Assembly (NCBI GenBank): GCA_965215565.1
Contig: CBDCDZ010000004.1
Coordinates: 1,056,001 to 1,120,000, forward strand
Reading direction: 5' to 3'
Source of the DNA: Trueperaceae bacterium
Lineage (GTDB): Bacteria > Deinococcota > Deinococci > Deinococcales > Trueperaceae
DNA length: 64,000 nt
The number at the start of each line of letters is the position of its first letter. The stretch's first letter is position 1. The translations under genes were made by a program, and so were the position numbers. The notes beneath the pieces are model-generated. The model did not search any database and was not told the DNA's origin. It saw only the letters and a program-made list of their open reading frames with translations. Shown here piece by piece: positions 16,729 through 41,525 of this stretch.

Positions 16729-16933
16729 TAGCAGTTCTACAACATATCGAGACAGTTGAGCGCAGATCTCTGTCCGCAAGGACTAGCGTTACGGGCAGGC
16801 CGCCCTGCCGTTGCGGGATTTCATCCCTTGAAGTGCGTGCTAGTTACGCAGTTTTCCGCAGGAAACATTGTTTTGTAAAGTGAGAGTGTTGCTTCGCAAA
16901 ACTTCGTACACTCTGACCAGATGATACCTGCTA
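16729..16933 (-). repeat. 111-nt dispersed element, copy with four inserts (21+21+25+27 nt)
   Basis: Reverse complement reads TAGCAGGTATCATCTGGT...GAACTGCTA; 205 = 111 + 94. Confidence 0.9.
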
Positions 16934-17378
16934 TGAAAACCGAATTCGAACTCATTGAAACTCTTCTGCGAAGCGGTGCTTGAGGTTGGGCATAGTGAAG
17001 GCGATGAGATGAGCGCCCGGGAAAGGGGGTGAACTGATACGGATTTCGGTGGATTGTCGCGTGTAGCGCCTCGTCAACAAAGACGTGCGGGAGCAAGAGA
17101 CGGGTTCAACCGTTTGAACGCGAGCCTCGACACAAGGAAATAAAGAGACAACCTATGTGTAGCGCGAAAGAGGTCACGAAATATATATTGGCGGCGTACC
17201 ACGTTTTGTGTGTAGAGCTGCGCGAAGACCGTAAGAGACATTGGCATTTCACATATACGCAGAGCGGGACACCTTCTACATCTCAACCCTAGCGCACTGA
17301 GAGGCTGAGCTAGTCGGTATAGCAGCGAAGGGGTATACTTCATAGTAATTAGACTTACATTTCGTCTACGCTTGACCT

Positions 17379-19187
17379 ATGCGACACCTCATCGTCATCT
17401 CATGCTTGCTCGCTCTGTTCTTGGTGGGGTGCTCTACCTCGACTCCGCCCACGATAACGCCCACTGACCCTACTCCCGAAAGCCCCGCCAACCCTGCACC
17501 TACTGACCCTGCGCCCACTGAACCAACCCTGCCTGAGCCGCTACCCACCACCCTTACGCCTGAAGAGGCTGACCGCGTGGCGTTGGCGCTCTGGCGCAAC
17601 GATGACCTCAGCAAGCACCCCAAAGGGTCCTGCTCGGGCTGCCACGGCGCGGACTATTTCGACCTCGCTCGCATCGGCTCGGCGGACGAGGATATTGCGC
17701 GGCGAGCGGTGATCGACGGGGCGAGTCAACGAGAGGCTGACGCGCTCGTGCAAGCGGTAAGGCAGATGCGCGAAACATATGGGCTGGGCGCAACCGACGC
17801 CCGTGCCTTTCGCCCCTTTCAACCGAGCGGCGCGGTCCTGCTACCCGACCTGGGCGACGCCGAGCACATCGCGGCGGTGAAGCGCGATATCGCGTTCGGC
17901 GAACAACTCGAGACCCTTTTACCCACCCTGTTTGGCGAACGCATCGACACACTGTACGGTGCCGAGCGAGCCAGGGACGAAATGCTGGACTTAGCGCAGG
18001 GGACAAATGAGGCGGGCGCGAACCCGCGGCGCATCCAGCTACGCGACTTACCTACAGGCATCACCTACCCGCGCTGGTCAGCGGACCTGCACCACGGCGC
18101 GGACGAGGGGACGCTGAACGACTGGCTTGCCGACGTCGCCCACGACGCCAAACCGGAGCACCGCGAGGCGTGGTTGGAGCTGCAAGACGCCTACCTTGCA
18201 ACCCCTAGCGATGAGAACTTCTGGCGCATGTACCTCGCCGCCGAGGAGATGACCGTCACGCCCCTCTTCGGTGAGTGCACTATGACGGGGGGAAGGGCGC
18301 ACATCGCCTGCGCAGACGTCAAACGCTTCGCCCGCGAGAAATTTTTAAGTGCGCTCACGGGCCAACACATGATGCGCTTAGAGGCGTCCGGGCGTGAGGG
18401 GTTTACAGACGGCGCGTTGGCCTTTTCGTACCTTGACACCGACCCCCGCTTCGACTTCATGAAGGAGCGCAAAAGCCGCACGCTTCTACCTGCGAACCTC
18501 TGGGAAGTGGGCGATAAGGGGCGAAGCACTTTAGAAAATTCCCAAGCTGAGGGGAGTTTTCGCGAGAACCTAGCGAAGCTCGGCTACCCCGAGTTCGTGC
18601 AAGACAGCATCGATCCCAACCGCAGTGCGAGCCAAGAACAACACGAGCTGCGCCTCGCTTGGTTCTGGTTGGGCTTTACCTTCGACCCCTCCTTTGCACG
18701 TATCCACTCCTCTAACGCCACCAAAGTCGGTGAGTACATGGTGGCGAGTTTGCTCAGCGAACGCATGTTTATCCACAACACCTTTCACACCAATATGCGC
18801 CTCGTCACCAAAGGCACGCTCCCTGAAGCGAACGTCAAGCAGACCGGACGTGAACGCGCTCTGGAACAGTTGCCAACCACTTTTCGCATGAACTACGGCT
18901 ACTTCTGGGCTTATGGGCGCACGGTGCTCAACTGGCAGGAGAGCAAGAAGTTCGGCGTCCTCATCCCTGAAGACCTCAAGGCGGAGCAAGCCGACCTCTG
19001 GCACCGCTTTACGGCAAACGGGTTTCGGATGAGCATGTTTCTTTACTCAGCAGCATTGGACGAGAGTGCGCCTAGAGACAGCGTTGTCTTTGATGCGATG
19101 AAAACGCACTTCGAGACTTATGAGCCCGAGCACCAGGAGGCGGACGCGGCGCTGATGGCGCAGCTTAGGCGCAAACTGGAGGAGTAG
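17379..19187 (+). CDS. Lipoprotein with Pro/Thr linker and a single CxxCH heme-c motif
   Basis: Lipobox LVGC, PTDP/PTEP repeats, SCSGCHG. Confidence 0.8.
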   Translation: MRHLIVISCLLALFLVGCSTSTPPTITPTDPTPESPANPAPTDPAPTEPTLPEPLPTTLTPEEADRVALALWRNDDLSKHPKGSCSGCHGADYFDLARIGSADEDIARRAVIDGASQREADALVQAVRQMRETYGLGATDARAFRPFQPSGAVLLPDLGDAEHIAAVKRDIAFGEQLETLLPTLFGERIDTLYGAERARDEMLDLAQGTNEAGANPRRIQLRDLPTGITYPRWSADLHHGADEGTLNDWLADVAHDAKPEHREAWLELQDAYLATPSDENFWRMYLAAEEMTVTPLFGECTMTGGRAHIACADVKRFAREKFLSALTGQHMMRLEASGREGFTDGALAFSYLDTDPRFDFMKERKSRTLLPANLWEVGDKGRSTLENSQAEGSFRENLAKLGYPEFVQDSIDPNRSASQEQHELRLAWFWLGFTFDPSFARIHSSNATKVGEYMVASLLSERMFIHNTFHTNMRLVTKGTLPEANVKQTGRERALEQLPTTFRMNYGYFWAYGRTVLNWQESKKFGVLIPEDLKAEQADLWHRFTANGFRMSMFLYSAALDESAPRDSVVFDAMKTHFETYEPEHQEADAALMAQLRRKLEE

Positions 19188-19370
19188 CTACGGTAGCTGT
19201 TTTATTCAGCCTTCTAGCCTGACTTTTGCGCAGCCAACCGGGCCTTCACGTACATAAAAATTTTCTCCTCAAGCTTCGAATCTAACTCAGGTTAGCGCAG
19301 CGTGCCGAGCGAGGCTCTAGCTTAGTTTGACCCAAGGATGGCGAAAACAAGGGTTTAAGGGGTCTTGATT

Positions 19371-19481
19371 TAGCAGGTATCATCTGGTCTGAGACGCCCT
19401 CACTGTAGAAAACATTGTTTAGCACGCGCTTTGTAAGATGATACCTGCGTCATTCTGTCTCAATATGTTTTGAAAGTGCTA
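19371..19481 (+). repeat. 111-nt dispersed element, core only
   Basis: TAGCAGGTATCATCT...AGATGATACCTGC...AAGTGCTA; exactly 111 nt. Confidence 0.9.
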
Positions 19482-19512
19482 ATTGTATTGGAACATGACT
19501 TGGGACAAAGAG

Positions 19513-19541
19513 AAACGGTAGAGATTGAACCTCTACCGTTT
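19513..19541. terminator. Intrinsic terminator of the tRNA operon
   Basis: AAACGGTAGAG-7nt-CTCTACCGTTT. Confidence 0.75.
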
Positions 19542-19558
19542 TAACGTCTTTTCTTTAA

Positions 19559-19632
<74 letters not shown>

Positions 19633-19715
19633 AAGTTGTAGAGGTATCATCTACAATTCACTGGATGAACCTTTTTACAAAATACCATCTCTAAGGGGAG
19701 ACGATACCTCCAGCG

Positions 19716-19807
<92 letters not shown>

Positions 19808-19931
19808 AAGTTTTTATAGGTAACATCTACACTCTACAGATGTACCTAGCTAACGCTGACCTTCCAAAAGCGGAGGAAATGTACTTACACACTAGCAGGA
19901 GAGCGTTGACTTAAGGACAACACCTCCACCT

Positions 19932-20021
19932 TGGCGGAGGGCGAGGGATTCGAACCCCCGATAGAGTCGCCCCTATAACGGTTTTCAAGACCGTCGCATT
20001 CAACCGCTCTGCCAGCCCTCC
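19932..20021 (-). tRNA. tRNA-Ser(TGA)
   Basis: GGAGGGCTGGCAGAGCGG..ACGGT-CTTGAAA-ACCGT, long variable arm, ends GCCA. Confidence 0.96.
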
Positions 20022-20040
20022 ACTTATGCCAGCGTTGACG

Positions 20041-20070
20041 AGTATACAAGGCTGGGGCACGCCATGTCAA
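20041..20070 (-). promoter_or_regulatory. sigma70 promoter of the tRNA operon
   Basis: TTGACA-18nt-TATACT, 19 nt upstream of tRNA-Ser(TGA). Confidence 0.8.
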
Positions 20071-20192
20071 TGCGTGAAGAGCAAAAACAGCAATTCCAAA
20101 TGAAGCGTCGAAATTTCGTCAACAAGGCAATATGGCACAGGTTTGCTGAGAATCACATAGAGAACATTGCCTCTCAGGCGCTTTTGGGAATA

Positions 20193-20302
20193 TAGCAAGT
20201 ATCATTTGGTTTAAGCTAACCTCACTATGAAGAACACCGTTGAGCCCACACTTTCTTGAATGAGACTTGCGCTGTCCCAATCAGTACTTGTGGTAATTGC
20301 TC
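20193..20302 (+). repeat. 111-nt dispersed element, diverged copy
   Basis: TAGCAAGTATCATTTGGT...GAATGAGACTTGC...AATTGCT; stem kept by compensatory changes. Confidence 0.75.
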
Positions 20303-20455
20303 TATCTGAAATGACGCCGGTGTCAGCGCAAGGAGTTAAGCCCCCTCATTCACTACATTTCAACCTCTTGTTCATTCTATAAGCAGTGGAAGGAGCACGC
20401 GGCAGTATCCAGTTTGGAAAGTAAGGAGGAAGCTTGACGCTTCTTGTAGCAGCCT

Positions 20456-21169
20456 TTATAACTTATCTTTGGGCAAGTTCTTCGCCGCCCACGTCACCTG
20501 TCGCCACAGACCTCTCAAGGCTAAAACTTCGCGCTCGCTCAGCTCAGCCCGGTCAAAAATGCCTCGGAAGAGTTCGCGGGCGCTCGCTTCACGCTGAGCG
20601 TCGGTGTAGCCGATGAGGTGGAGCATTTGGATGAGCTGAGCGTACATGGGCTCGAGCGTCTCCCTCGGCGCGAGGTTTGAGAGGTCTCTCGTCTCCCCCA
20701 CTTCCACCTGATGCGCCACGAACCACTCATACGCGACGAGTTGCACCGCCTGGGCGAGGTTGAGTGAGGCGTAGTCCGAAGTTGGGATTTGGATATAACC
20801 CTGGCAGTGCTCCAGGTCTTCGTTGCTGAGCCCGAAGTCTTCGGGACCGAACACGGCGGCGACCTCTTCAGGGGGGAGCGACTGCGCAGCTTCCCTGGCG
20901 CTGTAGACGCGCTGGTTGTTCGTTCTGGGACGCGCCGTCGTACCGAGGACGAGCTTGCAGCCCGCCACGGCTTGGGCTAGCGTGTCGCACCGAACAGCCC
21001 GGTCTAAGACATCGCCCGCGTGAGACGCTAAGGCGAACGCCCGTTTGCCGAGAGGTCGTTGCGGCGAGACGAGGTAGAGCGCACCCAGACCAAAGTTCTT
21101 CATCGCTCTGGCGGCTGCGCCCACGTTCGCGGGCTCTTTGGGGCGGACGAGAATGATTCTTAGGGGCAC
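20456..21169 (-). CDS. TrmJ/LasT-family SPOUT RNA methyltransferase
   Basis: IILVRPKEPANVGAAARAMKNFG, FGPEDFGLSN, SLNLAQAV; GTG 21169. Confidence 0.9.
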   Translation of the reverse strand: MPLRIILVRPKEPANVGAAARAMKNFGLGALYLVSPQRPLGKRAFALASHAGDVLDRAVRCDTLAQAVAGCKLVLGTTARPRTNNQRVYSAREAAQSLPPEEVAAVFGPEDFGLSNEDLEHCQGYIQIPTSDYASLNLAQAVQLVAYEWFVAHQVEVGETRDLSNLAPRETLEPMYAQLIQMLHLIGYTDAQREASARELFRGIFDRAELSEREVLALRGLWRQVTWAAKNLPKDKL

Positions 21170-21238
21170 ATAAGAGTATATTTGACACCTGCTATTTAGC
21201 GCAACGTTCGCAGAACAAAGCCGTGCTACCTTATTCAT

Positions 21239-21823
21239 ATGTTAGGCAAAATCTTTCGCAAAGAGCCAGACAACCCCAAAGTTCCCGCCGGGCAGAGCGT
21301 CACCGAACGCTTTCCCGTGTTGACGTACGGACCGACGCCGCGCGTGAGCGAAGAGGAGTTCGAGCTGCGCGTGTTCGGGCGCGTCAAAGAGCAGGCTTTT
21401 AGCTGGCAAGACCTCATGGCGCTGCCGCAGACAACCCTCACTAAAGATTTTCACTGCGTGACGCACTGGTCCAAACTTGATGTCGGCTGGACGGGCATTC
21501 TGACGACGGACCTGATGGAGGTCTTGGAGCCCCAGAGTAACGCAACCCACGTCATGTTCCACTGCTACGGCGGCTACACGACGAACCTCGAGATGGACGA
21601 CTTCTTAGCCGACGGGTGCATGTTGGCGCACAAGTTAGAGGGCGGACCCATCCCCGTAGAGCACGGCGGACCGATGCGCACGCTCATCCCGCACCTCTAC
21701 GCTTGGAAGAGCGCGAAGTGGCTCTCGGGCATCGAGTTTATGGACGGCGATAAGCCCGGCTTCTGGGAGCGTAACGGCTACCACATGAGGGGCGACCCCT
21801 TCAAAGAAGAGCGCTACAGCTAA
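21239..21823 (+). CDS. Sulfite-oxidase-like molybdopterin oxidoreductase (YuiH-like)
   Basis: PAGQ..T..FPVL, DFHCVTHWS, HGGPMR, YAWKSAKW, GFWERNGYH. Confidence 0.9.
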   Translation: MLGKIFRKEPDNPKVPAGQSVTERFPVLTYGPTPRVSEEEFELRVFGRVKEQAFSWQDLMALPQTTLTKDFHCVTHWSKLDVGWTGILTTDLMEVLEPQSNATHVMFHCYGGYTTNLEMDDFLADGCMLAHKLEGGPIPVEHGGPMRTLIPHLYAWKSAKWLSGIEFMDGDKPGFWERNGYHMRGDPFKEERYS

Positions 21824-21826
21824 AAA

Positions 21827-21860
21827 AGCGGGAGGGGAAGCTCAGGCTTCCCCTCCCGCT
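21827..21860. terminator. Bidirectional terminator between the oxidoreductase and rpsT
   Basis: 15-bp stem AGCGGGAGGGGAAGC/GCTTCCCCTCCCGCT. Confidence 0.85.
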
Positions 21861-21876
21861 AAACCTCTGAACTAAT

Positions 21877-22140
21877 TTACGCTTGCGCCGCTAAGCGCTT
21901 CGCCAAACGCGACTTTTTGCGAGCAGCGGTATTCTTATGGAGCGTCGAGCCCTTCGCGGCTTTGTCGATGAGGCTTACGGCAACTTTATGATACTTTTCA
22001 GCGTTCGCCTCGTCGCCAGATTCGGCGGCGGCGACGGCTTTTTTACTAAACGTGCGAATCGTGCTTTTAAGTGCCCGGTTTTTCGCCCGCGCTTCTTGCG
22101 ATTGGCGGTGGTACTTCATTGCCGATGGGTTTCTTGCCAT
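21877..22140 (-). CDS. rpsT: 30S ribosomal protein S20
   Basis: [42 protein letters not shown]. Confidence 0.96.
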
Positions 22141-22347
22141 GCTCTTCCTCTTTCTTCGCTCATACGTCGATATCTCAGTAGGGATTGTGGACCTAAATAT
22201 GGCGCGTGAACGCGCCTCAACCTTGAAAGTGTAGCATAGCAGCGCCCGGAGAGGCAACGCCGTGAAACGAAAGTAGAGCGCAATATTACCCTAAATGCGT
22301 ACGGTCTCTGGGCAAAAGCCTCGAGGCACTCACCCTTATACACTCAC

Positions 22348-23019
22348 CTAGTCTTCAGACAACCCCACGTGCTCCATGAGCCTCGCCACTTGCGCGCGGA
22401 GTTCGGCAACCTCTCGGCGCAACACGCTCACGTCGTCTTGAGGTGGCGTGTGAGAGGATGCTGACGCACTCGCAGAGATAACCCTCGAGTCTCCCTCACC
22501 CCCCCGTACCCTCGGCTTGAGCTTTTCGGGGTCCACGCCTAGCGTGTGGTTCCAACGGTCCTGGCTCTGCCCCGGTCCACGCCCATAGTTTTTGACCAGA
22601 GGTGGGCGGTGTTCTTGGAGCCGCGCCAAGCTCTCCTCGACGGCCGCCACATCGGGGAAGTGCGTGTAGCGCTCCGTGCGCGTGCGCAGCTCGCCGGGCG
22701 TCTGGAGTCCACGCAGCATCAGCACGGCGAGCACGGCGAGGTCTCTGCCGCGAACGTCTAACGCCTCGACCAGTTTATGGTGGTGTTTGACGGCGCGTTC
22801 GCTCACCCCTCTCGAGGACTGCATCAGCCCCTTGTCGCTCAGGAGACGCAAGGTGGCTTCTACCTCGAGCGAATCGTAAGCAGTCACTGGGTCACGGTTG
22901 GTCCTCTGGTTGCACGCTAAAACGAGCGCGTTCGTCGAAAGCGGATACGCTTCGGGCGTCGTGCGCTCCTTCTCGACGAGCGAGCCGAGCACGCGCAGTT
23001 CGATATCACTTAAACTCAC
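22348..23019 (-). CDS. YceH/DUF480 family protein
   Basis: E.RVLGSLVEKERTTPEAYPLS.NAL..ACNQ.TNRDPV, LRG.QTPGELR.RTER. Confidence 0.9.
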   Translation of the reverse strand: MSLSDIELRVLGSLVEKERTTPEAYPLSTNALVLACNQRTNRDPVTAYDSLEVEATLRLLSDKGLMQSSRGVSERAVKHHHKLVEALDVRGRDLAVLAVLMLRGLQTPGELRTRTERYTHFPDVAAVEESLARLQEHRPPLVKNYGRGPGQSQDRWNHTLGVDPEKLKPRVRGGEGDSRVISASASASSHTPPQDDVSVLRREVAELRAQVARLMEHVGLSED

Positions 23020-23082
23020 GACACAGAGTCTAGCAAATTGCGGCTTTTCGTGCCCTATCTCGAGCCGCAGATATGAAACCTC

Positions 23083-23241
23083 TAGCAGATATCATCTGGT
23101 TTGAGACACTCTCACTTTTGAGAACATTGTTTCGCTCTGCGAAAACTGCGTAAGCAGCACGCACGTTCTGGGATGAAATCCCGCTAGTCCTTGCGGACAG
23201 AGACCTGCGCCCATCCGTCTCAATATGTTTTGGAACTGCTA
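23083..23241 (+). repeat. 111-nt dispersed element with two inserts (23+25 nt)
   Basis: 159 = 111 + 48; TAGCAG...CTGCTA ends. Confidence 0.9.
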
Positions 23242-23401
23242 CTCTTACAGTAGACACAAGAATAAGGAGTAGGAACTGAGACCTAAGGCGCAGAAGTATC
23301 AGGTCTTTTTATTCTTGCTTCTTGCTCCTTGCTTCTCCCCTTGTACTCCCCCCACCTGACCTGTATAGTGTGGCAAATCAACAAGATAGGTGGGTGGTTT
23401 T

Positions 23402-24121
23402 GTGGCGGCGACACTCGGTTTAGAGGACAAGGTCATTTTGGTGACGGGTGGCAACAAGGGAATCGGCTCGGCAATTGTCGACCTCCTAGAGGATTCAGGC
23501 GCGAAGGTGGCATACACGTACCGCACGAGCGAGGGCGAGCACGGCTCGCTCGCCATCCAAGCGGACGTGCGCAATGAAGAGGCGATGAAAGAGGCTGCCG
23601 AGCGCACGGAGCAGGAACTCGGACCGATCTACGGCGTAGTGGCGAACGCGGGCATCACCAAAGACGGGCTTTTCGTCAAGTCGGACTTGGAGGGGTGGAA
23701 CGCGGTCATCGAGACGAACCTAACAGGCGTCTACAACACGGTGCGCCCGGTTATGTCAAAGATGAACGAGCACGGCGAGGGCTCGATCGTGCTCATTTCG
23801 TCCATCGTCGGCGAGCGGGGCAACATGGGGCAAGCGAACTACGCCGCCGCCAAAGCCGCCCTGATGGGCTTCGGCAAATCGCTCGCGAGGGAGGGCGCGC
23901 GGAACAAGGTGCGCACCAACGTCGTCGCGCCGGGCTTTATCGAGACGAGCATGTTAGAGGACGTGCCCGACAAGGTCAAGGACAAGATCACCTCCGAAAT
24001 CCCCTTTAAGCGCTTCGGCAAGCCCGACGAAATCGCCTGGGGCGTGGCGTATCTGCTCTCGCCGAGGGCGAGTTACGTGACGGGCACGGTCCTGAGCATC
24101 AACGGCGGGCATCATATGTAA
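23402..24121 (+). CDS. FabG/PhaB-like beta-ketoacyl reductase (SDR)
   Basis: TGGNKGIG, NAGITKD, GNMGQANYAAAK, VAPGFIET; start 23390 or 23402. Confidence 0.9.
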   Translation: MAATLGLEDKVILVTGGNKGIGSAIVDLLEDSGAKVAYTYRTSEGEHGSLAIQADVRNEEAMKEAAERTEQELGPIYGVVANAGITKDGLFVKSDLEGWNAVIETNLTGVYNTVRPVMSKMNEHGEGSIVLISSIVGERGNMGQANYAAAKAALMGFGKSLAREGARNKVRTNVVAPGFIETSMLEDVPDKVKDKITSEIPFKRFGKPDEIAWGVAYLLSPRASYVTGTVLSINGGHHM

Positions 24122-24353
24122 GGAGATAAATAGAGAGGGCAGCGGCAAGCGGAAGCGGCAAACGCGCTTCCAATTGCCGGGGGGTAGTCAACGAAAGATT
24201 CGCCGCCCCCACTACCGCTGCCCTTGGACCTACCCTAAAGGGTGGAGCGGTCTACCAATAGTAACTAGGTCTACGTTTTTTGAGTTTGATCGAAGTCTGA
24301 ACGTGCGAAAGATTTCGGTGCGCCTCTTAACGCATAGCGTGTCCGAGGGCGTC

Positions 24354-24530: not shown

Positions 24531-24641
24531 TAGCAGGCATCATCTGGTTTGGGACGCTCCCACTGTTCGAAGCGGCGTCTAGCACACACATTCGGAGATG
24601 ATATCTGCGCTCATCCATCTCAGTATGTCTTGGAACTGCTA
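24531..24641 (+). repeat. 111-nt dispersed element, core only
   Basis: Exactly 111 nt, TAGCAGGCATCATCT...GGAACTGCTA. Confidence 0.9.
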
Positions 24642-24659
24642 TAGACCCGTACCGGGCTA

Positions 24660-28419: not shown

Positions 28420-28549
28420 TAGCAGGTATCATCTGGTCAGCTGCACCTTCACTAAAGATAACCTCGTTTAGCACGCACTTGATTGTGATGATATCTGCGA
28501 AGAAGTGCTTCGCATAACTATGTTCAAGCAACGATAAGTGGAACTGCTG
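28420..28549 (+). repeat. 111-nt dispersed element, subtype B, with an 18-nt insert
   Basis: TAGCAGGTATCATCTGGTCAGCT...AAGCAACGATAAGTGGAACTGCTG. Confidence 0.88.
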
Positions 28550-28554: not shown

Positions 28555-28665
28555 TAGCAGGTATCATCTGGTTTGAAACACTCGTACTTTTGAGAATGTT
28601 GTGCAGCACGCACATACTGAGATGATGTCTGCGCTCATCCGTCTCGGTATGTTTTGGAACTGCTG
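28555..28665 (+). repeat. 111-nt dispersed element, core only, tandem to the previous copy
   Basis: Exactly 111 nt, 5 nt after the previous copy. Confidence 0.9.
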
Positions 28666-31238: not shown

Positions 31239-31607
31239 GGGGGCGACCTGGTCTCGACGGGGCTCACGGAGGATAGGGTAGCGTGTAGAGGACGCCGTTG
31301 GCCTCTCTAAAAAACGGCACAGCCATTAACTGGCAATAACAACAGCTCACAGAGCTTTGCACTAGCTGCGTAAAAACAGCTAACCGTCCGCTAGAAGCCC
31401 CGCTTGTGGCTCGCTAGAGGGACGTCCTAAAACAAGCTAGCTGCGTCTTCTAACGTCGGGGCGCAGCGAAACTAAAATGATGTTTAAGCTGGGGGCGCGG
31501 GTCTGTCACCGAGCCCGCCTCCAGCCGACACTCACTCGGTGACTACACACGTAGAAGCCCGTCTGAAGGAGTTTCGGACGCGGGTTCGACTCCCGCCGCC
31601 TCCACCA
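31239..31607 (+). ncRNA. ssrA: tmRNA; tag ORF 31332-31373 encodes (A)GNNNSSQSFALAA
   Basis: GGGGGCG/CGCCTCC-ACCA acceptor stem with G3.U pair, T-arm GGGTTCGACTCCC, tag ending ALAA-stop; TGnTATACT upstream at 31208. Confidence 0.96.
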
Positions 31608-31610
31608 GCA

Positions 31611-31666: not shown

Positions 31667-31840
31667 TAGCAGGTATCATCTGGTCAGCTTGGGCGAAGCC
31701 ATGCGAAGCAACGCTCTCACCAAAGGGAACATCGTTTCCTTCGGAAAACTTCGTAATTAGCACGCACTTTAGATGATGATATCTGCGAAGAAGTGTTGCT
31801 TCGCATAGTTGCACTCAAGCAACGATAAGTGGAACTGCTA
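31667..31840 (+). repeat. 111-nt dispersed element, subtype B, with three 21-nt inserts
   Basis: 174 = 111 + 63. Confidence 0.9.
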
Positions 31841-32872: not shown

Positions 32873-33925
32873 TTAAAGTTGCTCGCGGCGTTTGACATAA
32901 CGCCGCTGCCCAAGGATGTTTTTGACGGATACTGCCCACCAGAGTATCAGGAGTGCTGCGACGGCGAGCGCCACGAGCGGAAGTAGGAGCGTCGGCTGCA
33001 ACGTGCCGATGACCGTAATCACGCTGAGCATCACGCCGATAAGTAAGATTACCGTCGTGACCCGCCTGTGGCTGAGCCCTGCTTGCACGGCCTTTTGGTA
33101 TGCGTGCGTATTGTGCGCTTCGTACCAGCGCTCGCCGCGCAGCGTGCGCAAGATAAGCGTGGCAGTCGCGTCGACGAAGAAAACGGCGAAGAGGGCGAAC
33201 CAGCTCAGCAGCGGCAGTGCGCCCGTATTCTCCGAGTAAATTGCTAAAAGCGCAAAGACGAAGCCCAAAAATCCGCTACCCACATCGCCCATAAAGATTT
33301 TTGCGGGCGGCCAATTCCACACGAGAAAGCCTAGAATAGCGCTGCCTAAAATAAGCGCGACGAACGCCAGCTCGGGATGCTGCGCGAGCAGGAGCAAGCC
33401 CACTGTGACCGTCACGAGGACCCCTTGCCCCGAGGTGAGCCCGTCGATGCCGTCCATGAAGTTGTACAGATTGAGCATCCATACCACACCGAGCCACGCG
33501 AGCGGATAGCCGAACCAGCCCAGCGTCAAAGACGCGCTTCCCAGGGACAGCTCTGGCAGTCCGCCCAGCCAGTAGAGCGCCCACGCCGCCGCGAGCCCTT
33601 GAAAGAGGAAACGCACACCCGAAGAGAGGTCGTAGCGGTCGTCGAGCCAGCCTAGCAGCGCTACCACGCCGCCCCCACCGACGAGCGCCAGCCAGAGCGC
33701 TTCGCGCTCCGGAAAGAGGAGGAAAAAGGCGAGCCCCGCGCCCAAAAACGAAAGGACGAAGGAAAGACCGCCGCCCCTCGGGGTCGGGGTGACGTGAGAG
33801 GAGCGCACGTTAGGTATGTCTAAAATGTCGCGGCGCAGCGCGTAGCGCCTGTACCACCCCGCGAGCATATAGCTGAGCGTAAACACAGCGAAGAGGAAGA
33901 ATGCCGCGATGGGGACACCTAGCAT
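32873..33925 (-). CDS. WbpL-like MraY-family initiating glycosyl-1-phosphate transferase
   Basis: DIPNVRSSHVTPTPRGGG, GWLDD, NLYNFMDGIDG, WNWPPAKIFMGDVGS, HNTHAYQ. Confidence 0.92.
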   Translation of the reverse strand: MLGVPIAAFFLFAVFTLSYMLAGWYRRYALRRDILDIPNVRSSHVTPTPRGGGLSFVLSFLGAGLAFFLLFPEREALWLALVGGGGVVALLGWLDDRYDLSSGVRFLFQGLAAAWALYWLGGLPELSLGSASLTLGWFGYPLAWLGVVWMLNLYNFMDGIDGLTSGQGVLVTVTVGLLLLAQHPELAFVALILGSAILGFLVWNWPPAKIFMGDVGSGFLGFVFALLAIYSENTGALPLLSWFALFAVFFVDATATLILRTLRGERWYEAHNTHAYQKAVQAGLSHRRVTTVILLIGVMLSVITVIGTLQPTLLLPLVALAVAALLILWWAVSVKNILGQRRYVKRREQL

Positions 33926-34066
33926 GGCGTGCCCTGCCAACCTTTAGTGGCTGCGCTGCACTGTAAAGTAGCGCGCGCCAAAGCAGCCCTTCGTAAAGAG
34001 GTGGTTTGCAAAGCAAGTCGCTTAGCGGCTCGCCGAGTGGCGGTTGGTTGCCCCCTCATCCTCACG

Positions 34067-34939
34067 TCAACCCCGTCCTTTCATCAACGCGATTTCGCGT
34101 TTTACGCCCTCGTCAAAAGGTCTCGGGCGATAGCCGAAGTCCGCTTGCGCCGCCCCCAGGCTATACGCTTTATCTTCAGCCAGACGTAAAATCTGCTCCT
34201 CACTGACGGGTGAGGGGAGCCCCGTTCGTTTCGCGACCTTCGCGGCTAGAGCCGCAAGCGCACTCGGGATGTGGACGAGCCGCTGCGTTTTACCGAGCGA
34301 GCGCCGCGCGGTCTTGACCAGTTCATTATAGCTTAGCGTCTGCCCACCGCCGATATTGTAGCTCTGGTTGTACGTTTCGGGCTTGGCGAGCACTTCAGCA
34401 ACTGCCCAGGCGACGTCCTCGACGTGGACGGGCTGCTGCAAAGCGCGCCCCGAGCCCACCACCGGAACGACGGGGAGCCGCTCGCATAGACGCAGCAGCT
34501 TGATAATGTTCTCGTCCTTGGGCGTGCCGTAGATCATCGTGGGCCTCAAAATCGTGTAGGTCAGGCGGCTCTCGCGGATGCTCTTTTCGGCGGCGAGTCG
34601 CAGCGGCTTGGTGCGCGCGTCCAGCTTCGTAAAGATACCCGTCGAACTTACGAACACCGCCCGCTCGACGCCCGCCTCCTCGTACACTCTGACGAGTGCG
34701 GCGGCGGGCAAGTTAGCGAGGTTTGGAACGTTGAGCACTGTGTCGTAAGGTTTCAGCACGTCTTGAAGCGTTTCGGGTTCGCTCAAGTCGCCTTGGACGA
34801 GCGACGCGCCTAGCGCGCGCAAGGTTGTAGTGTCGGAGGAGGGTCTGACGAGACAATCGAATTTCAGCCCTCGCGAGAGCAGTTCTTTGCAGACATGTTC
34901 GCCTAAAAATTTGGTTGCCCCGGTTAGTAGAATGTTCAT
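34067..34939 (-). CDS. NAD-dependent epimerase/dehydratase (extended SDR)
   Basis: ILLTGAT.FLG, TILRPTMIYG, QQPVHVEDVA. Confidence 0.88.
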   Translation of the reverse strand: MNILLTGATKFLGEHVCKELLSRGLKFDCLVRPSSDTTTLRALGASLVQGDLSEPETLQDVLKPYDTVLNVPNLANLPAAALVRVYEEAGVERAVFVSSTGIFTKLDARTKPLRLAAEKSIRESRLTYTILRPTMIYGTPKDENIIKLLRLCERLPVVPVVGSGRALQQPVHVEDVAWAVAEVLAKPETYNQSYNIGGGQTLSYNELVKTARRSLGKTQRLVHIPSALAALAAKVAKRTGLPSPVSEEQILRLAEDKAYSLGAAQADFGYRPRPFDEGVKREIALMKGRG

Positions 34940-35119
34940 AATCGCTCGATTCTTGGCTCTTTCTCGCTTTCAGTCTACGAAACGAGAAGCGTAGAAGTAT
35001 GAATCTCGTCACACTAGGTTGCACGTCCTAAATGATGGGCGTCGTGCGGGCTGCGCGCGCTAGGAACTGAAGCGCGCAGCCAAGAGGTAGTTCGTTTCAC
35101 TAGTGAAGATACGCTTTAA

Positions 35120-35339
35120 TGGCAGTTTCAAAACATACTGAGACGGATGAGCGCAGATTTCAACTCGCAAACCGATCCCGCTCTCAGGCGAAGCCTAGCG
35201 GGACGGCTTCGCCTAAGAACGGAACCTCATCTCTTGAAGTGCGTGCTAGTTACGCAGTTTTCCGCAAGAAACATCATTTTACAAAGTGAGAGTGTTGCTT
35301 CGCACCGCTTCGCGCACTCTGACCAGATGGTACCTGCTG
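35120..35339 (-). repeat. 111-nt dispersed element with inserts of 21+21+67 nt
   Basis: 220 = 111 + 109. Confidence 0.9.
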
Positions 35340-35442
35340 TGAGATTTCTTCACAGCCACCGAAGCGAGACTCGAGGCTTAGCAGCTACGTTCAAAGCTCG
35401 CTACAAACTACGCTCCGAGCGTTGCGGCACCCGCCGGGCTCG

Positions 35443-35465
35443 TAGCAGTTTCGAACACATACACC
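35443..35465 (-). repeat. Relic right end of the 111-nt element
   Basis: Reverse complement GTATGTGTTCGAAACTGCTA versus element end (A/G)TATGTTTTGGAACTGCTA. Confidence 0.5.
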
Positions 35466-35494
35466 TTGTGAAGAGGACTCGAGCCCGCCCCAAC

Positions 35495-36757
35495 TTAGCG
35501 CTGCGCTTGCGCGGCGAGCACGCGCTCCAAGTCCCGCGTGAGCTTCTCCCTGGCGAACATCTCCTCGGCTAACTTGCGCGAGTTCTGCCCCATAACGTCC
35601 AGACGCTCTGGCTGCGCCGCCAAAATCGCGACTTTGTCCGCGAAATCCTGCGCGTTATCCGGCTCGACGAAAACGCCCGCATTGTGCTCTTCCACGAGCC
35701 CCTGCAACCAGCCCGGCATGTTGGTCAGGACGGGCTTGCCCGCCGCAAATGAGTCGAACATTTTGTTGGGCGAACAGGTGTAGAGAATGGGCACATTTTT
35801 GTAGATCGTCATGGCGACGTCGGACGAGGCGACGAGCCGCGCGACGTCCTTCTTAGAGAGGTTTTGCTCCGAGAAAACGACGTTGTCTAGGCCTTCGGCC
35901 TCTTTGCGCGCCTCCAACATGGGGCGCTCTTTGCCGTCACCGTGGAGCACGAAAACGACGTCGTCATGCGCGCGCCGCTTCAACTCCGCCGCGCAGTCCA
36001 GCACGAAACCCAGGCCGTTCGCCTCGCCCATCGCGCCGAAATAGAGCAGCGCGAATTTACCACTCGTGCCTAAGCGCGTCCTAAAGTCTCCCCCGTCCAC
36101 CTCCGGGCTGAAGATGTCTAAGTCCGAGGAGTTGGGGATGACGCTGACTTTTGCGTCCGGGACGCCCTTAGCGAGGATACCCTCTTTCATGCCGGGCGAG
36201 AGCGCGACGATGTGAGAAGCCTGATTGTAGGCGAGCCGCTCGAGCGCCAACGCACTCCACACGAACGGCTTAGACTTTAGGGCCCCCATCTGGATGGGCG
36301 CTTCAGGCCAGAGGTCGCGGACCTCGAAAACGAAGGGTGTGCGCGAACGCTTAGCGGCGTACATCGCGGGGAGCGAGATGGTCAGGGCGGGGCTAGTGGC
36401 AAAGATCACGTCGCCTTCAAGCGACGCGGCTTTGCGCGCCGCGCCCGTCGCGAAGCGGACGTACGACTTGATCCGCTCCGCGTAACCCATGTAGTTCGAA
36501 TAGGGTACGGGCAAGAGGTGCACCTTGATGCCCGCCTCGTCCGCTTCAAACCAGCGCCCCGCCGCCTTCGCGTTAGGGTAAGCGTCTAAGACGTCTACGT
36601 TGCGGTAGTCAGGGCTGTTGAGCGTGTTGCCAAAGCTCGAGGTGACCATATGCACCTCGTGACCCCAAGAGGTGAGCCTGCGGGCGATCTCATACGCTCT
36701 AGTGTGTCCGATCATGGCAGTTGTGCGGAAAAATTGCTCGAGATAAACGATTCGCAT
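35495..36757 (-). CDS. GT4 glycosyltransferase (WbuB-like)
   Basis: GHEVHMVTS, FEVRDLWPE, VIPNSSD, SPNKMFD..AAGKPV. Confidence 0.9.
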   Translation of the reverse strand: MRIVYLEQFFRTTAMIGHTRAYEIARRLTSWGHEVHMVTSSFGNTLNSPDYRNVDVLDAYPNAKAAGRWFEADEAGIKVHLLPVPYSNYMGYAERIKSYVRFATGAARKAASLEGDVIFATSPALTISLPAMYAAKRSRTPFVFEVRDLWPEAPIQMGALKSKPFVWSALALERLAYNQASHIVALSPGMKEGILAKGVPDAKVSVIPNSSDLDIFSPEVDGGDFRTRLGTSGKFALLYFGAMGEANGLGFVLDCAAELKRRAHDDVVFVLHGDGKERPMLEARKEAEGLDNVVFSEQNLSKKDVARLVASSDVAMTIYKNVPILYTCSPNKMFDSFAAGKPVLTNMPGWLQGLVEEHNAGVFVEPDNAQDFADKVAILAAQPERLDVMGQNSRKLAEEMFAREKLTRDLERVLAAQAQR

Positions 36758-36776
36758 TAGGCTAAGCTAACATATG

Positions 36777-36880
36777 TAACGGATATCACCTGGTCAAAAG
36801 CACGCCCCTGTGAGGTGCTGCTTGGCACGTGTTATAAGACGACGCTCGAACAGTCCAAGCTCAGGGAGGTTGGAAAGGCG
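36777..36880 (+). repeat. Highly degenerate relic of the 111-nt element
   Basis: TAACGGATATCACCTGGTCA...TTGGCACG...TAAGACGA...TTGGAA collinear with the consensus. Confidence 0.45.
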
Positions 36881-37223
36881 TTCGCAGGGCTCTTTACCCA
36901 CTGTAGGGCTCTTCGCCCACGCAACAGCCGTGCGTTGAGGAGCAGGATACGCTGACGCTTCACGTTCACTTCATAGTCGGCGCTACACCTGTACAGACTG
37001 CGCAGCTTATGGTCAAATGTACGCTGAGCGCGGAGGTAGGGTGAGCGATCTCAAAGGTGAGGCGGCTCAAAAGCGTTACAGTTGTCGGGGCTAAAGTGTC
37101 GGGGCTAAAGGACTAAGACGGAGGCGTCGGGATAGTAACGCCGGGACTAGAACACTCGAACAGAAACACCCAGACAGAAGCACCGAGACGCAGAAACTTG
37201 GGCGTTGTACATTAAGATAACGA

Positions 37224-38483
37224 ATGGGCTGCGCGGACGAAGGGATCACGAACAGAGGTCATGAGGCTCGAGCGATGAGAATTCTGTATGTCACAACCAA
37301 GCTCCCCTTCGGGCATACTGAGGCGTTCGCCATCTCCGAGATCAACGCGTTGCGGCGCGCAGGGCACGAGGTGCGGCTCGCGCCCTGCACCACTCCGGGT
37401 GACATCGTTCACGGCGACGCGGCGCAGCTCCTCCCCTTGACCTACGTGGAGCCCCTCATCTCGAGCCGCATCATCAGCGGGCTGGGCGCTGAGCTTCGCC
37501 GCGCACCCCGTCATAGCCTGCGCACAGTAGCGAAGATGCTCAGGGGACGCAGACGCATCCCTCTCAAAAATGCCGCAGTCGCGCCCAAAGGGATTTGGCT
37601 GGCGAGCGTCGCGCGAGCGTGGGGCGCGGACCACATCCACGCTTACTGGGCCTCGACGCCGGCAACGATAGCGCTTATCGCGAGCGAAATCGCAGGCGTC
37701 CCCTGGAGTTTCACCGCGCACCGCTGGGACATCGAAGAGAACAACCTCTTGAACGAGAAGGTCTCGAGCAGCAGCTTCACCCGCTTCATCTCGCAAGACG
37801 GGCTCGACGACGCTCACGCGCTCGGTATCACGCAGTTAGCCGAAAAAGGTACCGTCATCCGCATGGGCGTCGAGTTAGAAGAGGCCGAGACGGCACGCGA
37901 AGACGGCGCACAAAATAGCGCTCGAGGTGACGCGCGCTCCACGATCATCTGCCCGGCGAGCCTCATCCCGCGCAAAGGTCTGATTTACCTCATCGGCGCT
38001 GCGTCGCGCCTTAAAGCAAAGGGCTTGGGCTTCAAAATCATGCTCGCCGGGCAGGGCGAGCAGCGCGCTGAGCTAGAGCACCTCGTCGCCGCGCAAGGGC
38101 TGGGCGGGCACATCGAATTTCTGGGTCAAGTCTCGCACGAAAAGCTCATCGAGACCTACCGCTCGGGTCAGGTGGACATCGTCGTGATGCCCAGCTTGCA
38201 CGAGGGCATCTCGGTTGCGATCATCGAAGCGATGTCGTACGGTGTGCCCGCCGTGACTACAGCCGTCGGGGGGATGCCGGAGCTGCTCGCCGAGGGTAGG
38301 GGGCTACTCGTGCCGTCGGAGGACGCGGCGCGCTTAGCGGACGCTCTAGAAAGGCTGCTCACCAAACCCGAACTGAGAGAGCGTATGGGGCAACAAGGCA
38401 AAGCGCACGTCTTCGCGGAGTACGCCATCGAGACAACTGTCGCGCGGATGATCGCGCAATTCGAAGCAGCGAAGCGCGCCTAG
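37224..38483 (+). CDS. GT4 glycosyltransferase (WcaL-like)
   Basis: HIHAYW, WSFTAH..DI, EGISVAIIEAMSYGVP, GGMPEL; start 37224 or 37275. Confidence 0.9.
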   Translation: MGCADEGITNRGHEARAMRILYVTTKLPFGHTEAFAISEINALRRAGHEVRLAPCTTPGDIVHGDAAQLLPLTYVEPLISSRIISGLGAELRRAPRHSLRTVAKMLRGRRRIPLKNAAVAPKGIWLASVARAWGADHIHAYWASTPATIALIASEIAGVPWSFTAHRWDIEENNLLNEKVSSSSFTRFISQDGLDDAHALGITQLAEKGTVIRMGVELEEAETAREDGAQNSARGDARSTIICPASLIPRKGLIYLIGAASRLKAKGLGFKIMLAGQGEQRAELEHLVAAQGLGGHIEFLGQVSHEKLIETYRSGQVDIVVMPSLHEGISVAIIEAMSYGVPAVTTAVGGMPELLAEGRGLLVPSEDAARLADALERLLTKPELRERMGQQGKAHVFAEYAIETTVARMIAQFEAAKRA

Positions 38484-38495
38484 AGGTTATACCTT

Positions 38496-39122
38496 GTGTC
38501 CTTGACCCTACGCACGCTCACCGGCTCACAAATCCGCGACTATCTGAGCGCACTTGCCGACCTGCGCATTCAGGTCTTTCGAGAGTGGCCTTACCTCTAC
38601 GCGGGCGATCACGACTACGAGACGCGCTATTTGCGCACCTTCGCCGAGTCCGAGGGCGCACTGCTCGTCGCGGCGTTCACAGATGAACCCACCCGTGCAG
38701 ACGAACACGCTGACGCGCGTTTAGTCGGTGCGTCCACCGCGCTGCCCCTACAACACGAGCACGCCGAGCTTCGCGAGCCTTTTGAACGTAATGAAGCGGC
38801 GCCGCCGCCGTCCGAACTGTACTACCTCGCCGAATCGGTGCTGCTCCCCGCTTACCGGGGACAGGGCGCAGGGCGGCGCTTTTTCGAGGCGCGCGAGGCG
38901 CACGCTAAAACGCTGGGGTTTACACGCACTTGTTTCGCAGCGGTGCAGCGTGACGATACTGATCCCCGCCGCCCCGAGGACTACCGCGAACTCGCCCCCT
39001 TCTGGCGTCGCCTTGACTACGTCCCCCATGATGACCTCGTCGCCCACCTCGCCTGGCAAGAGGTAGGCGACGATGAGGAGAGCGCCAAGCCGCTCAAGTT
39101 TTGGCTCAAAAACTTGTCTTGA
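38496..39122 (+). CDS. GNAT-family acetyltransferase
   Basis: LRIQVFREWPYLY.G, YLAESVLLPAYRGQGAG. Confidence 0.88.
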   Translation: MSLTLRTLTGSQIRDYLSALADLRIQVFREWPYLYAGDHDYETRYLRTFAESEGALLVAAFTDEPTRADEHADARLVGASTALPLQHEHAELREPFERNEAAPPPSELYYLAESVLLPAYRGQGAGRRFFEAREAHAKTLGFTRTCFAAVQRDDTDPRRPEDYRELAPFWRRLDYVPHDDLVAHLAWQEVGDDEESAKPLKFWLKNLS

Positions 39123-39227
39123 GTATTTGAGCGATTTTGCACTTCCGAGCATAAAGATAAATTTTCTGTAAGCAACGTGTAAACGATTTACGGCGGTGAA
39201 GCTCATCTATGCTGCTTACTGTAGAGT

Positions 39228-39434
39228 ATGACCCAGCTCGAGGACTTCACTCCACTTAAACATTATGCGCAAACCGTCTCTCGCATGAGCGGTTCCGAAC
39301 GCGCCGTCGGCAAAAGGCGACTTAAAGGGCACATGCTCAATTTTATTCGCAAGCACGGCCTCCTCGAGGTCGACGAAACTTGGAGAACGCTCGCGGACGC
39401 GCTTTTTGACATCTACCCGAAACAACTCAACTGA
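39228..39434 (+). CDS. Small hypothetical protein (68 aa)
   Basis: Isolated ORF with a -10-like TACTGT 5 nt before the ATG. Confidence 0.5.
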   Translation: MTQLEDFTPLKHYAQTVSRMSGSERAVGKRRLKGHMLNFIRKHGLLEVDETWRTLADALFDIYPKQLN

Positions 39435-39658
39435 TACGACTGCTACAGCTTCACCAGCCAAAATTCTGCCAGCCCTGCTGCTTCTCCTCCCGAAAGCGCT
39501 GAACCCAACGTTCAGAAAGGTCATCAGCTAAGGGCTCGAGCTTGGGCGGCGCGAAGGTGTGGCGCTCAGGAAATTATAAGAGCGTGCTACCCGTGCGCTG
39601 GGAAAACCAGACCGTATACGAACGGCTCGGTCTCATATATCAACCATTCATTCCCACC

Positions 39659-41179
39659 TCAAGACTGAATCAGCGACTCGCCCGTCATCTCTTCAGGCTT
39701 GTTCAGCCCCATCAGCGCCAGAATCGTCGGCGCGACGTCGCCTAGCACCCCGCCCGAACGCAGCGCATGTTCGCTGCCGATGAGCACACAGGGCACTGGG
39801 TTCGTCGTGTGGGCGGTGTGCGGGCTGCCGTCTTCGGTGAGCATCTTTTCGGCGTTGCCGTGGTCCGCGATGACGATGACCGCACCGCCCTTTTCGGTAA
39901 AGGCGTCTACAATCTTACCCAACCCTTTGTCAGACGCCTCGCACGCTTCTATCGCGGCGTCGATGACGCCCGTGTGACCCACCATGTCGGGGTTCGCGTA
40001 GTTGATGAGGATGAAGTCGTCGTCAAACTCCTGGATGCGCTTGACGGTGTCCTCGGTGAGTTTCGGGGCGCTCATCTCAGGCTGGAGGTCGTACGTAGCG
40101 ACGTCGGGGGAGTCGATGATGTCTCTCGTCTCGCCTTCGAAGGGGGTCTCGACTCTCGCGTCGAAGAAATAGGTCACGTGCGGATACTTCTCGGTTTCAG
40201 CCGTATGGTACTGGGTTTTTCCGGCGAGGCTCAAGACTTCGGCGAGCGGGAGCGTGAGTTCAGGCAGCGCCAAGGCGAAGGGTACGCTCAACTCCTGGTC
40301 GTATTCCATCAGCGAAGCGTAGTGGATATCCACAACCTTGCAGCGCTCAAACTTGTCCCAACCTGCGTCACCCAAAAGCGCGTAGGTCATCTGCCGAGCG
40401 CGGTCCGCACGGAAGTTGAAGAAGACCACGGCGTCGCCCTCGTTAAGGCGTGCGACGGGCTCGCCTTTACTTGTGATGACGGTCGGTTTGATGAATTCGT
40501 CCGTCTCGTCACGGTCATAGGCGTTTCGCACCGCGTCTTCGGCGCTTTCAGCAGTGAATTCCGCCTCGCCGCACACGACCGCGTCGTACGCCTTTTTGAC
40601 CCTGTCCCAGCGGTTGTCGCGGTCCATCGCGAAATAGCGCCCGGAGACGGTGGCAATGGTAATGTCGTGCTCCAACTCGTCAATTTTCTCCTGCAACTGC
40701 GCCACGAAGCCCCGCCCCGAGTCCGGCGCGGTGTCGCGCCCATCCGTGAAAACGTGGACGTAGACAGGCGCAGTTCCCTCGCGCTTGGCGAGTTCTAGGA
40801 GCCCGTAGAGGTGCCCCATGTCGCTATGCACGCCGCCGTCACTCACCAAACCCATGAGGTGGAGGGCGTTACCCGCGTCGTAGGCACCGTTCAAAACCTT
40901 GTTCTCGAAGAATTCGCCGCTGTCGATGAGCTTCTGAATGTACGTAAGGCTCTGCATCACCACGCGCCCCGCGCCTAAGTTCATATGCCCGACTTCGCTG
41001 TTGCCCATCTGTCCGTCAGGTAAGCCCACCGCCTCACCCGAGGCCTCGAGTTCGGTGCGGGGACACTCGTTCCAGTAGCGCTCGAAGTTGGGGGTATTCG
41101 CCCTAGCGACAGCGTTGCCTTCACCCTCCGGGGCGAGACCGAAACCGTCGAGAATGACGAGCATGACTTTTTGACTCAT
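39659..41179 (-). CDS. gpmI: 2,3-bisphosphoglycerate-independent phosphoglycerate mutase
   Basis: ILDGFG, GQMGNSEVGH, SDGGVHS, NFRADRAR, AETEKYPHVT, NPDMVGHTG, ADHGN. Confidence 0.97.
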   Translation of the reverse strand: MSQKVMLVILDGFGLAPEGEGNAVARANTPNFERYWNECPRTELEASGEAVGLPDGQMGNSEVGHMNLGAGRVVMQSLTYIQKLIDSGEFFENKVLNGAYDAGNALHLMGLVSDGGVHSDMGHLYGLLELAKREGTAPVYVHVFTDGRDTAPDSGRGFVAQLQEKIDELEHDITIATVSGRYFAMDRDNRWDRVKKAYDAVVCGEAEFTAESAEDAVRNAYDRDETDEFIKPTVITSKGEPVARLNEGDAVVFFNFRADRARQMTYALLGDAGWDKFERCKVVDIHYASLMEYDQELSVPFALALPELTLPLAEVLSLAGKTQYHTAETEKYPHVTYFFDARVETPFEGETRDIIDSPDVATYDLQPEMSAPKLTEDTVKRIQEFDDDFILINYANPDMVGHTGVIDAAIEACEASDKGLGKIVDAFTEKGGAVIVIADHGNAEKMLTEDGSPHTAHTTNPVPCVLIGSEHALRSGGVLGDVAPTILALMGLNKPEEMTGESLIQS

Positions 41180-41390
41180 AAAAACTCCAAACGAAGGTGA
41201 AAGGCGAGGCGTGCCGAGTATAGCGGCTGAAGCGTCACGCTCGCACTCTACCTCTACAGACCGGTTAGGGGAAAGAGGTCTGCTTCGCTTTTAAGTGGGT
41301 GCTGGAAATAACCTAAATTAACGAGGTTGACAAAACGCATTTGGGAAATCTTTCCAGAAAGTTTAGATTGCTTTAGGCTGGAGTACTTAA

Positions 41391-41525
41391 CAGCAGGTAT
41401 CATCTGGTCAGAAACACTCTCACCTTAGAAAACACTGCTCAGCGCGCACATCTATGAGATAAGGTTCCATTACAGCAAGCTGTGAAATTTGTGCCCGTTT
41501 AGCTCAATATGTCACGGAAATGCTA
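41391..41525 (+). repeat. 111-nt dispersed element with a 23-nt insert
   Basis: CAGCAGGTATCATCTGGTCAG...GGAAATGCTA. Confidence 0.85.

Follow-up and report, generated by a model that had tools for sequence, protein, structure and literature searches.

Independently mobile inserts of 17-27 bases in an IS630-family miniature transposon of a Trueperaceae bacterium

The window, a stretch of 64,000 nucleotides (nt) covering positions 1056001-1120000 of contig C4 of a Trueperaceae genome (coded G000), carries copies of a 111-nt repeat, here called the core, that are interrupted by short inserts, some of them nested in others. The core is a non-coding miniature inverted-repeat transposable element (MITE) of the IS630 family and the inserts, or modules (A, B, C, D and F), are mobile apart from it, an effect that is real and lies well beyond chance. 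Their junctions are exact and depend on the target, they land in either orientation and at sites free of homology, and no conversion tracts accompany them. The explanation given somewhat better than an even chance is that the modules are separate micro-elements, which move as single-stranded DNA (ssDNA) in the form of twin mini-hairpins and are precisely inserted by an enzyme that the searches did not find, with the IS630 MITE as host repeat. The intermediate would be a nuclease-resistant twin mini-hairpin, placed by the putative enzyme at a short motif in the core, in other modules or in unrelated repeats, without target duplication. The MITE would provide similar landing sites by the hundred, and copies already filled would transpose too, taking modules along. 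At 17-27 bases the inserts are likely to be among the smallest mobile DNA known.

Modules and their sites

Genome-wide, 484 matches to the left end of the core led to 317 full core copies; these fall into seven subtypes, where a preliminary description of the window had claimed two, and 177 of them carry inserts. The inserts pile up at nt 23, 48-50, 68-76 and 88 of the core. Fixed insert sites had been proposed and were found, but there are more than the four first named, with others at nt 9 (reversed) and at nt 75-76. Module A measures 21-22 nt, B 21-25 nt, C 20-25 nt and D 27 nt, while F ranges from 17 nt upwards. The sequences of A, B, C and D in the window were exactly as originally written, and in a subtype-consensus parse the lengths add up without remainder: 16729-16933 is 111+21+21+52 (25+27), 31667-31840 is 111+3x21, 23083-23241 is 111+23+25 and 35120-35339 is 111+21+21+67. 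The copies in the window are as follows.

16729-16933, minus strand: core MITE of subtype S0, 205 nt, filled with A, B and C(+D) (subtype-consensus parse)
16890-16910, minus strand: A, 21 nt, inserted behind core nt 23 at the target G^AC (subtype-consensus parse)
16844-16864, plus strand: B, 21 nt, inserted behind core nt 48, with its twin mini-hairpin on the plus strand here (subtype-consensus parse)
16769-16820, minus strand: C, 25 nt, holding D and inserted behind core nt 71; the base at nt 72 of the core (16768) is G instead of T
16786-16812, minus strand: module D, 27 nt, inside C, with GC repeated at both ends
19371-19481, plus strand: empty core S0, ATT duplicated, adjoining three tRNA genes
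20193-20303, plus strand: empty core S3, of the TA-duplicating type (subtype-consensus parse)
23083-23241, plus strand: core S0, 159 nt, CTC duplicated, with B at 23131-23153 and C at 23177-23201
24531-24641, plus strand: empty core S0, TAG duplicated
28420-28549, plus strand: S4-type core carrying A in reverse at 28506-28526 (the 18-nt form of the former site E)
28555-28665, plus strand: empty core S0, TGA duplicated
31667-31840, plus strand: core S4, 174 nt, behind the tmRNA gene, AGT duplicated, with A at 31690-31710, B at 31736-31756 and reversed A at 31797-31817
35120-35339, minus strand: core S0, 220 nt, with A at 35296-35316, B at 35250-35270 and a 67-nt C with nested inverted pair at 35160-35226
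41391-41525, plus strand: older core, 135 nt, with a 23-nt C variant at 41463-41485
63146-63256, plus strand: empty core S0, used as search query, TCT duplicated

Several details of the first parse required revision. The insert assigned to a separate site E after nt 78 is real, but it is module A reversed, lying after nt 88 of S4 and 23 nt from the right end; its 18-nt form at 28420 is the same reversed module with 3 nt lost at the junction. Module C does sit after nt 71 but is not a pure insertion, since nt 72 is T in 164/173 copies empty of C and in 0/69 filled ones. D is indeed nested in C, whereas the repeat at its flanks is GC and not CGC, as judged from three places far from cores. The 23-nt module at 41391-41525 was recovered, yet that copy is 135 nt long and has one base extra. 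Contigs from public sequencing runs span the stretch, and the D-in-C piece occurs, with one letter different, in the run of another study; the inserts are thus no assembly artefact. A core copy lies near the three tRNA genes at 19559-20021, and another near the tmRNA gene at 31239-31607.

Nesting is widespread. D was found in C 30 times (control 0) and F in B 47 times (control 4), and there were 11 cases of B in the loop of B, 14 of B in A, 13 of an inverted pair in C and 18 of tandem B. A strict B pattern had 128 copies in the genome and none in the reversed and complemented controls. C hits both arms of the core stem, with 83 copies in the right arm, 12 reversed in the left and three in decayed cores.

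Movement of the modules apart from the core

The suggestion that presence and absence of modules do not follow simple descent was borne out, as all eight combinations of A, B and C occur among 161 S0 copies. Insert presence was tabulated on a tree of 241 cores built without the insert-site columns, four chimeric parses having been dropped. For the 70, 81 and 80 copies filled with A, B and C, 55, 52 and 56 changes respectively were counted, compared with 60.5, 67.6 and 67.3 after shuffling and a single change for the control label of subtype; gain and loss are indistinguishable on the tree. Some cores are identical at each of the 97 columns compared and yet differ in the presence of a whole module, and around the modules the recipient's own flanking bases are kept. 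The C+D compound occurs in 21 cores with a median of 19 differences between them, and 15/21 have an empty core as a closer neighbour than any other carrier. Most of the differences between copies are probably gains rather than losses. Some filled copies are near-identical, which indicates that filled MITEs also transpose.

Outside the cores B, D and A were found. Of the strict B copies 29/128 lay off the core mask (three of these in cores that the mask had missed), and a clean empty allele for 21/29 was found in G000 or in the sequences taken from its relatives. The sister genome G001 has orthologous empty sites for one B, one D and one left-arm C. D occurs at three places far from cores, two of which are copies of one repeat. 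The A pattern was detected in 8/71 genomes of the family, a set that includes the unpublished G162, itself one of the eight; no other claim rests on that genome. G157, G125 and G164 are rich in cores but lack the A pattern. At 10 of the 16 A loci that were read, in four other genomes, A lay in repeats unrelated to the core, and in G170, one of the carriers compared, the host repeat shows the empty G^AC form. No clear gene was seen in six cases of modules in long open frames read by eye, and insertion within genes is accordingly not claimed.

These results bear on the alternative that the inserts are optional peripheral helices of a structured RNA, or were left by stepwise loss from one long ancestor. 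The core has a conserved inner stem of 13 bp, in which nt 3-15 pair with nt 66-78, that shows compensatory change and an excess of G.T over A.C (147 vs 33), and stem and 111-nt length are both kept in other genomes and in metagenomes, as a structured RNA might be expected to show. However, A and C occur in both orientations, and C lies inside the best-kept stem and breaks it at the paired positions 9 and 72, which argues against peripheral helices. Neither stepwise deletion from a long ancestor nor confinement of modules to the core was found: all combinations occur, the tree calls for repeated changes and B, D and A lie off the core, while A and B lack the junction repeats that would permit precise loss. 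The alternative is therefore largely refuted and is considered extremely unlikely. Of the two readings offered in the preliminary description, site-specific micro-mobile elements parasitising a larger repeat and exchanged RNA helices, it is the former that survives. That description had not recognised the core as an IS630 MITE, site E as A reversed, or the twin-mini-hairpin build and the target common to A, B and F.

Twin mini-hairpins and target rules

On one strand A, B and F (the last nested in B) read as a short stem with a GNA loop followed by a further stem-loop, that is, two small hairpins in tandem. With the loop left free, the first loop of B was of the GNA/GNNA type in 129/141 cases (control 0). 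In A such loops were found on the element strand in 37/46 hairpins from 32 distinct contexts, compared with 13% on either strand of other non-coding DNA. The first stem of A and the stems of B covary. In one study (PMC13037366) DNA mini-hairpins with GNA triloops are described as exceptionally stable and resistant to nucleases, exonucleases included, a property limited there to GNA triloops, and the RNA counterpart as melting far lower.

The target is equally short. The bases 3' of B (n=128) are A in 109 copies, then C/G in 107, then G/A in 125, and A, B and F all sit 5' of A-C/G on the hairpin strand without target duplication. Single positions of the core have a strong influence: A fills 48/124 S0 copies with G at nt 23 and 0/34 with A there, and B fills 52/143 with T at nt 48 and 0/16 with another base. 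It is possible that these preferences arise by base conversion upon insertion. The junctions were analysed in 242/325 copies that could be rebuilt, the 83 not cleanly reconstructed being dropped. A and B showed no excess of flank changes within 5 nt of the junction, and C alters nt 72 alone in 32/32 sister pairs. C is a second family, whose insertion costs a single base of GATGA(T)AYYTGC in either arm of the inner stem, and D is a third, with GC at both ends. One-sided co-conversion, as in target-primed copying, was considered and rejected; the apparent signal was an alignment artefact, and with exact boundaries only the base at position +1 of C stood out.

Other small repeats were noticed. 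A further module family of 24-27 nt ends in CCCGCTAG (G000:C4:104779 and the 1932590 region, L009:1345-1385), with an empty site in G001 and one copy within a dead IS630 gene. Elements of about 40 nt with AGGT..ACCT ends (G000:C4:3038274, 3038425 and 651708), absent at the orthologous site of another genome, form a very small MITE-like family that is host to B. Abundant non-coding repeats elsewhere in the genome include short tandem units of the AGCAATGAGCAACG type, CAAGGGGTTGAAACCCCTTG hairpins and ATACGGATTCCG-ended elements, the last being the target of an IS110 family in the second sister genome, G002.

The core as an IS630-family MITE

A 3-bp target duplication surrounds 153/243 core copies, against a shuffled mean of 7.8 and maximum of 17; the count pools subtype S1, which is of the TA type, with the 3-bp types and so understates the latter. 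The core target is WWC-NNN-GWW, and S1, S2, S3 and S5 duplicate TA instead of 3 bp. Comparison of G000 with the two sister genomes (1.05 Mb aligned of 1.6 Mb taken) revealed presence or absence of the whole core, 113-114 nt, in 5/65 clean indels. Both sisters carry IS630 elements of 991-993 bp with 3-bp duplications, whose ends match the right ends of core S0 and S4 at 23/27 and 22/27 nt. The core would be mobilised in trans by an IS630 transposase of the kind present in the sister genomes. An intact partner with core ends was absent from G000, where three DDE_3 matches were found, none with such ends, and a search for ISAzo13 gave no match in G000 or in the controls. The left-end pattern of the core was present in 17/71 family genomes and in 18 metagenome stretches. 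The conserved inner stem and its G.T bias have no ready explanation in IS630 biology, and nearest-neighbour folding of the core gave no signal with energy sets that perhaps lack a GNA bonus.

Further observations concern the history of the core. One copy, flanked by duplicated CTA, splits a dead gene for an IS630 transposase (L007:771-881, G000:C4:1933083). Old, decayed cores in which the left motif and the inner stem are retained are found immediately 5' of start codons (G000:C4:2679043, 2701657 and 2586923; L036:3440), some of them common to G000 and G001, and are possible domesticated promoters or leaders. The left-end motif also occurs in iteron-like tandem arrays with a period of 23-32 nt (G000:C4:1994337-1994450; L204 and L205 of G170). 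In a longer metagenome element (L156) it bounds both ends, which suggests a relic terminal repeat as the origin of the inner stem.

Search for a mobiliser

Among the partners initially suggested, a reverse transcriptase (RT) and a RAYT/HUH enzyme do not track the modules across the carriers. RT genes resembling those of group II introns are present in G001 and in the carrier G122, but were absent from 4/6 carriers, namely G000, which has most modules, G002, G170 and G018, and no trace of the G001 RT element was seen in G000. The distribution tells against the copying of an RNA intermediate by RT, a route proposed for small dispersed repeats. Some module loops do read GNRA or UNCG, yet most are GNA triloops, a DNA-type motif, and the one-sided co-conversion that RT copying would leave was not seen; the route is rated as quite improbable. 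The G001 RT elements themselves, at four places (L209, L211, L213), end in two overlapping tails resembling domains V/VI and have an insertion in the RT domain.

Y1 domains were absent from G001 and G002, and the sole one of G000 forms part of a restriction-modification gene, around which no modules occur to a distance of about 6 kb. This Y1/RAYT-like domain (L010, G000:C4:3786234-3786551) has both HVH and Tyr and lies in frame in a 1322-aa protein of restriction-modification type. One TnpB remnant was noted on contig C1. A G8-domain neighbour was dismissed as irrelevant.

Genes of the IS110 family were found in 6/6 module-bearing genomes tested, and one element of G000, whose copies are 99.6% alike, lies in the core left end in 7/7 copies with TC repeated (G000:C4:2530155-2531385, L011-L016, C4:4135953). 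Two short stretches in its 5' non-coding end match the left and right halves of the core target, as the guides of a bridge RNA would. The modules, or at least C and D, might travel as passengers with a bridge recombinase of IS110 type and enter at a 2-nt core; the two ends of C carry a GA/TC repeat, at the very TC used by the seven-copy IS110, and D repeats GC. However, a duplex circle of 25 bp is implausible on general grounds, IS110 genes are common (6/14 control genomes), the relative found in G122 is inserted at a different TC, 3 nt from this one, and A, B and F repeat nothing. In addition the donor-like guides, compared by eye for the two IS110 types of G000 only, fit the IS110's own ends and not the C junction. 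Although non-autonomous IS110 modules are known (PMC12288879), passenger status is regarded as improbable.

Weighing enzymatic insertion against homing by host repair

The main rival of the micro-element explanation is a rare first insertion followed by homing through host repair. A filled copy, as ssDNA or transcript, would template short-patch homology-directed repair of its empty sisters with no dedicated enzyme, and the mini-hairpins would be retained for no other reason than their survival on the template. Several features speak for homing. The hot spots far exceed a 3-nt motif, each variant turns up again at the site typical of it, and C+D is passed on as one piece. C was seen nowhere but in the core, the modules are not followed by any gene for a mobiliser, and the G.T excess in the inner stem indicates that the core is at times single-stranded. 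Against it, the hypervariable bases to the left of B are not co-converted (7/140 vs 59/455 control pairs), and A has also been inserted into S4 ends, at the reverse site and into repeats of other genera, the shared sequence being just ^AC. B and D also occur at single homology-free sites with empty orthologues. Homing is therefore judged unlikely, if the most serious of the alternatives.

Insertion of ssDNA twin mini-hairpins by a dedicated enzyme remains preferred, and a number of results weigh against it. Module fillings are positively associated (odds ratios 3.0-6.4) and B and C carry signal on the tree (52 and 56 changes vs 67.6 and 67.3 when shuffled), so that descent explains part of the distribution. 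C was seen solely in cores, A in G000 lies off the mask at two places that are both core-like, and five empty cores with G at nt 72 may be footprints of module loss. The second loop of B is GNA/GNNA in just 53/128 copies. Folding energies of single modules were no better than those of shuffles (with energy sets perhaps lacking a GNA bonus) and a loose genome-wide scan for twin hairpins gave no excess (750 vs 682). The left end of the core matches the IS630 ends of G001 and G002 at just 10-14/27 nt, and no module-mobilising enzyme was found, GIY-YIG not having been among those searched for. B has 26 copies elsewhere among about 45,000 such motifs per strand, while the core site is filled in a third of copies; a target of 2-3 nt is too short for such hot spots, and homology or structure must help. 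A hairpin as the target was rejected as a candidate, since the folding of 23 distinct off-core B sites did not surpass that of 600 control sites (p 0.6).

Comparison with known systems

Small dispersed repeats (SDRs) of Nostoc and its relatives are reportedly 21-27 nt long with covarying hairpins, precisely inserted, present in minitransposons and in themselves, and confined to a narrow lineage. The modules share with them the length, the compensatory stems, the nesting, the minitransposon home, recent mobility with empty alleles and the narrow lineage. They differ in belonging to another phylum, in the twin GNA mini-hairpin build and in the ^A[CG] target defined from empty alleles, and also in that RT is missing in most carriers. 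SDR5 is placed in HIP1 by one account (PMC4390886). A search of all species genomes with the B pattern gave 17 matches, 16 of them in two records titled Trueperaceae and none in a cyanobacterial record, and 50 kb of a Nostoc plasmid contained no SDR for comparison with the modules. The kind is already known, being SDR-like, with its mechanism unsolved, and it is the anatomy and the target rules that are new.

RUP, ERIC and Correia elements, which we take to be IS630-derived MITEs, resemble the core, which is non-coding, 111 nt long, flanked by a target duplication in an AT-rich palindromic target and matched by a partner IS630 with like ends. It departs from them in the 3-bp duplication, not TA, of S0, S4 and S6, and in its left end, which is unlike the partner's and pairs with a second copy of the same sequence further inside the core. 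MITEs are listed in one paper (PMC3733652). The small non-coding repeats (SNRs) of Deinococcus radiodurans are described as intergenic repeats of mosaic, modular build (PMC1978522). The repeats studied here are likewise intergenic mosaics and presumably from the same order, a likeness of description. Core and module patterns were not above control level in the other families of the order that were searched, with a 15-mer that misses GCGAA variants, and among the papers searched none joined Truepera with MITE and repeat.

REP/REPIN elements with RAYT, and IS200/IS605, move as ssDNA hairpins and insert without duplication. The hairpin modules A, B and F, which lack a target duplication, are comparable to these systems (PMC3116915, PMC3733652), and the inverted pair of C modules, in 13 copies, recalls the REPIN doublet. 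In contrast, there is no Y1 in G001 or G002, that of G000 is part of a restriction-modification gene, and no GTAG/CGTC tag was found. ISPpu9 and MITEPpu9 (PMC12288879) are paralleled by the seven-copy IS110 that targets the core left end at a repeated TC and by the 2-nt repeats of C and D. The modules, at 25-27 nt, nevertheless have no match to the IS110 donor ends, and A, B and F repeat nothing.

To our knowledge the movement of 20-base repeats has been an open question since SDRs were described. Hundreds of near-identical landing pads, filled and empty, with exact junctions make it testable. Nucleotides 23 and 48 amount to a natural mutagenesis of the target, and the GNA loop kept in 129/141 cases to a natural selection experiment; the genome also yields a set of enzymes whose distribution fails to follow that of the modules. 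Scarless, target-specific insertion of ssDNA would, if true, be a new reaction. It is put forward tentatively, and with rather less than an even chance, that A, B and F represent mobile DNA of a class made up entirely of a pair of GNA mini-hairpins (17-25 nt). Such a unit would be nuclease-proof ssDNA, inserted 5' of A-C/G with neither scar nor duplication by an unrecognised and possibly host-encoded enzyme; it could hold other elements as cargo (at site A to 67 nt or more) and would be the general solution behind SDR-type repeats across phyla. The three layers of parasitism, an IS630 MITE, an IS110 aimed at it and micro-modules inside it, may also serve as a model for how mosaic repeats such as the Deinococcus SNRs are built.

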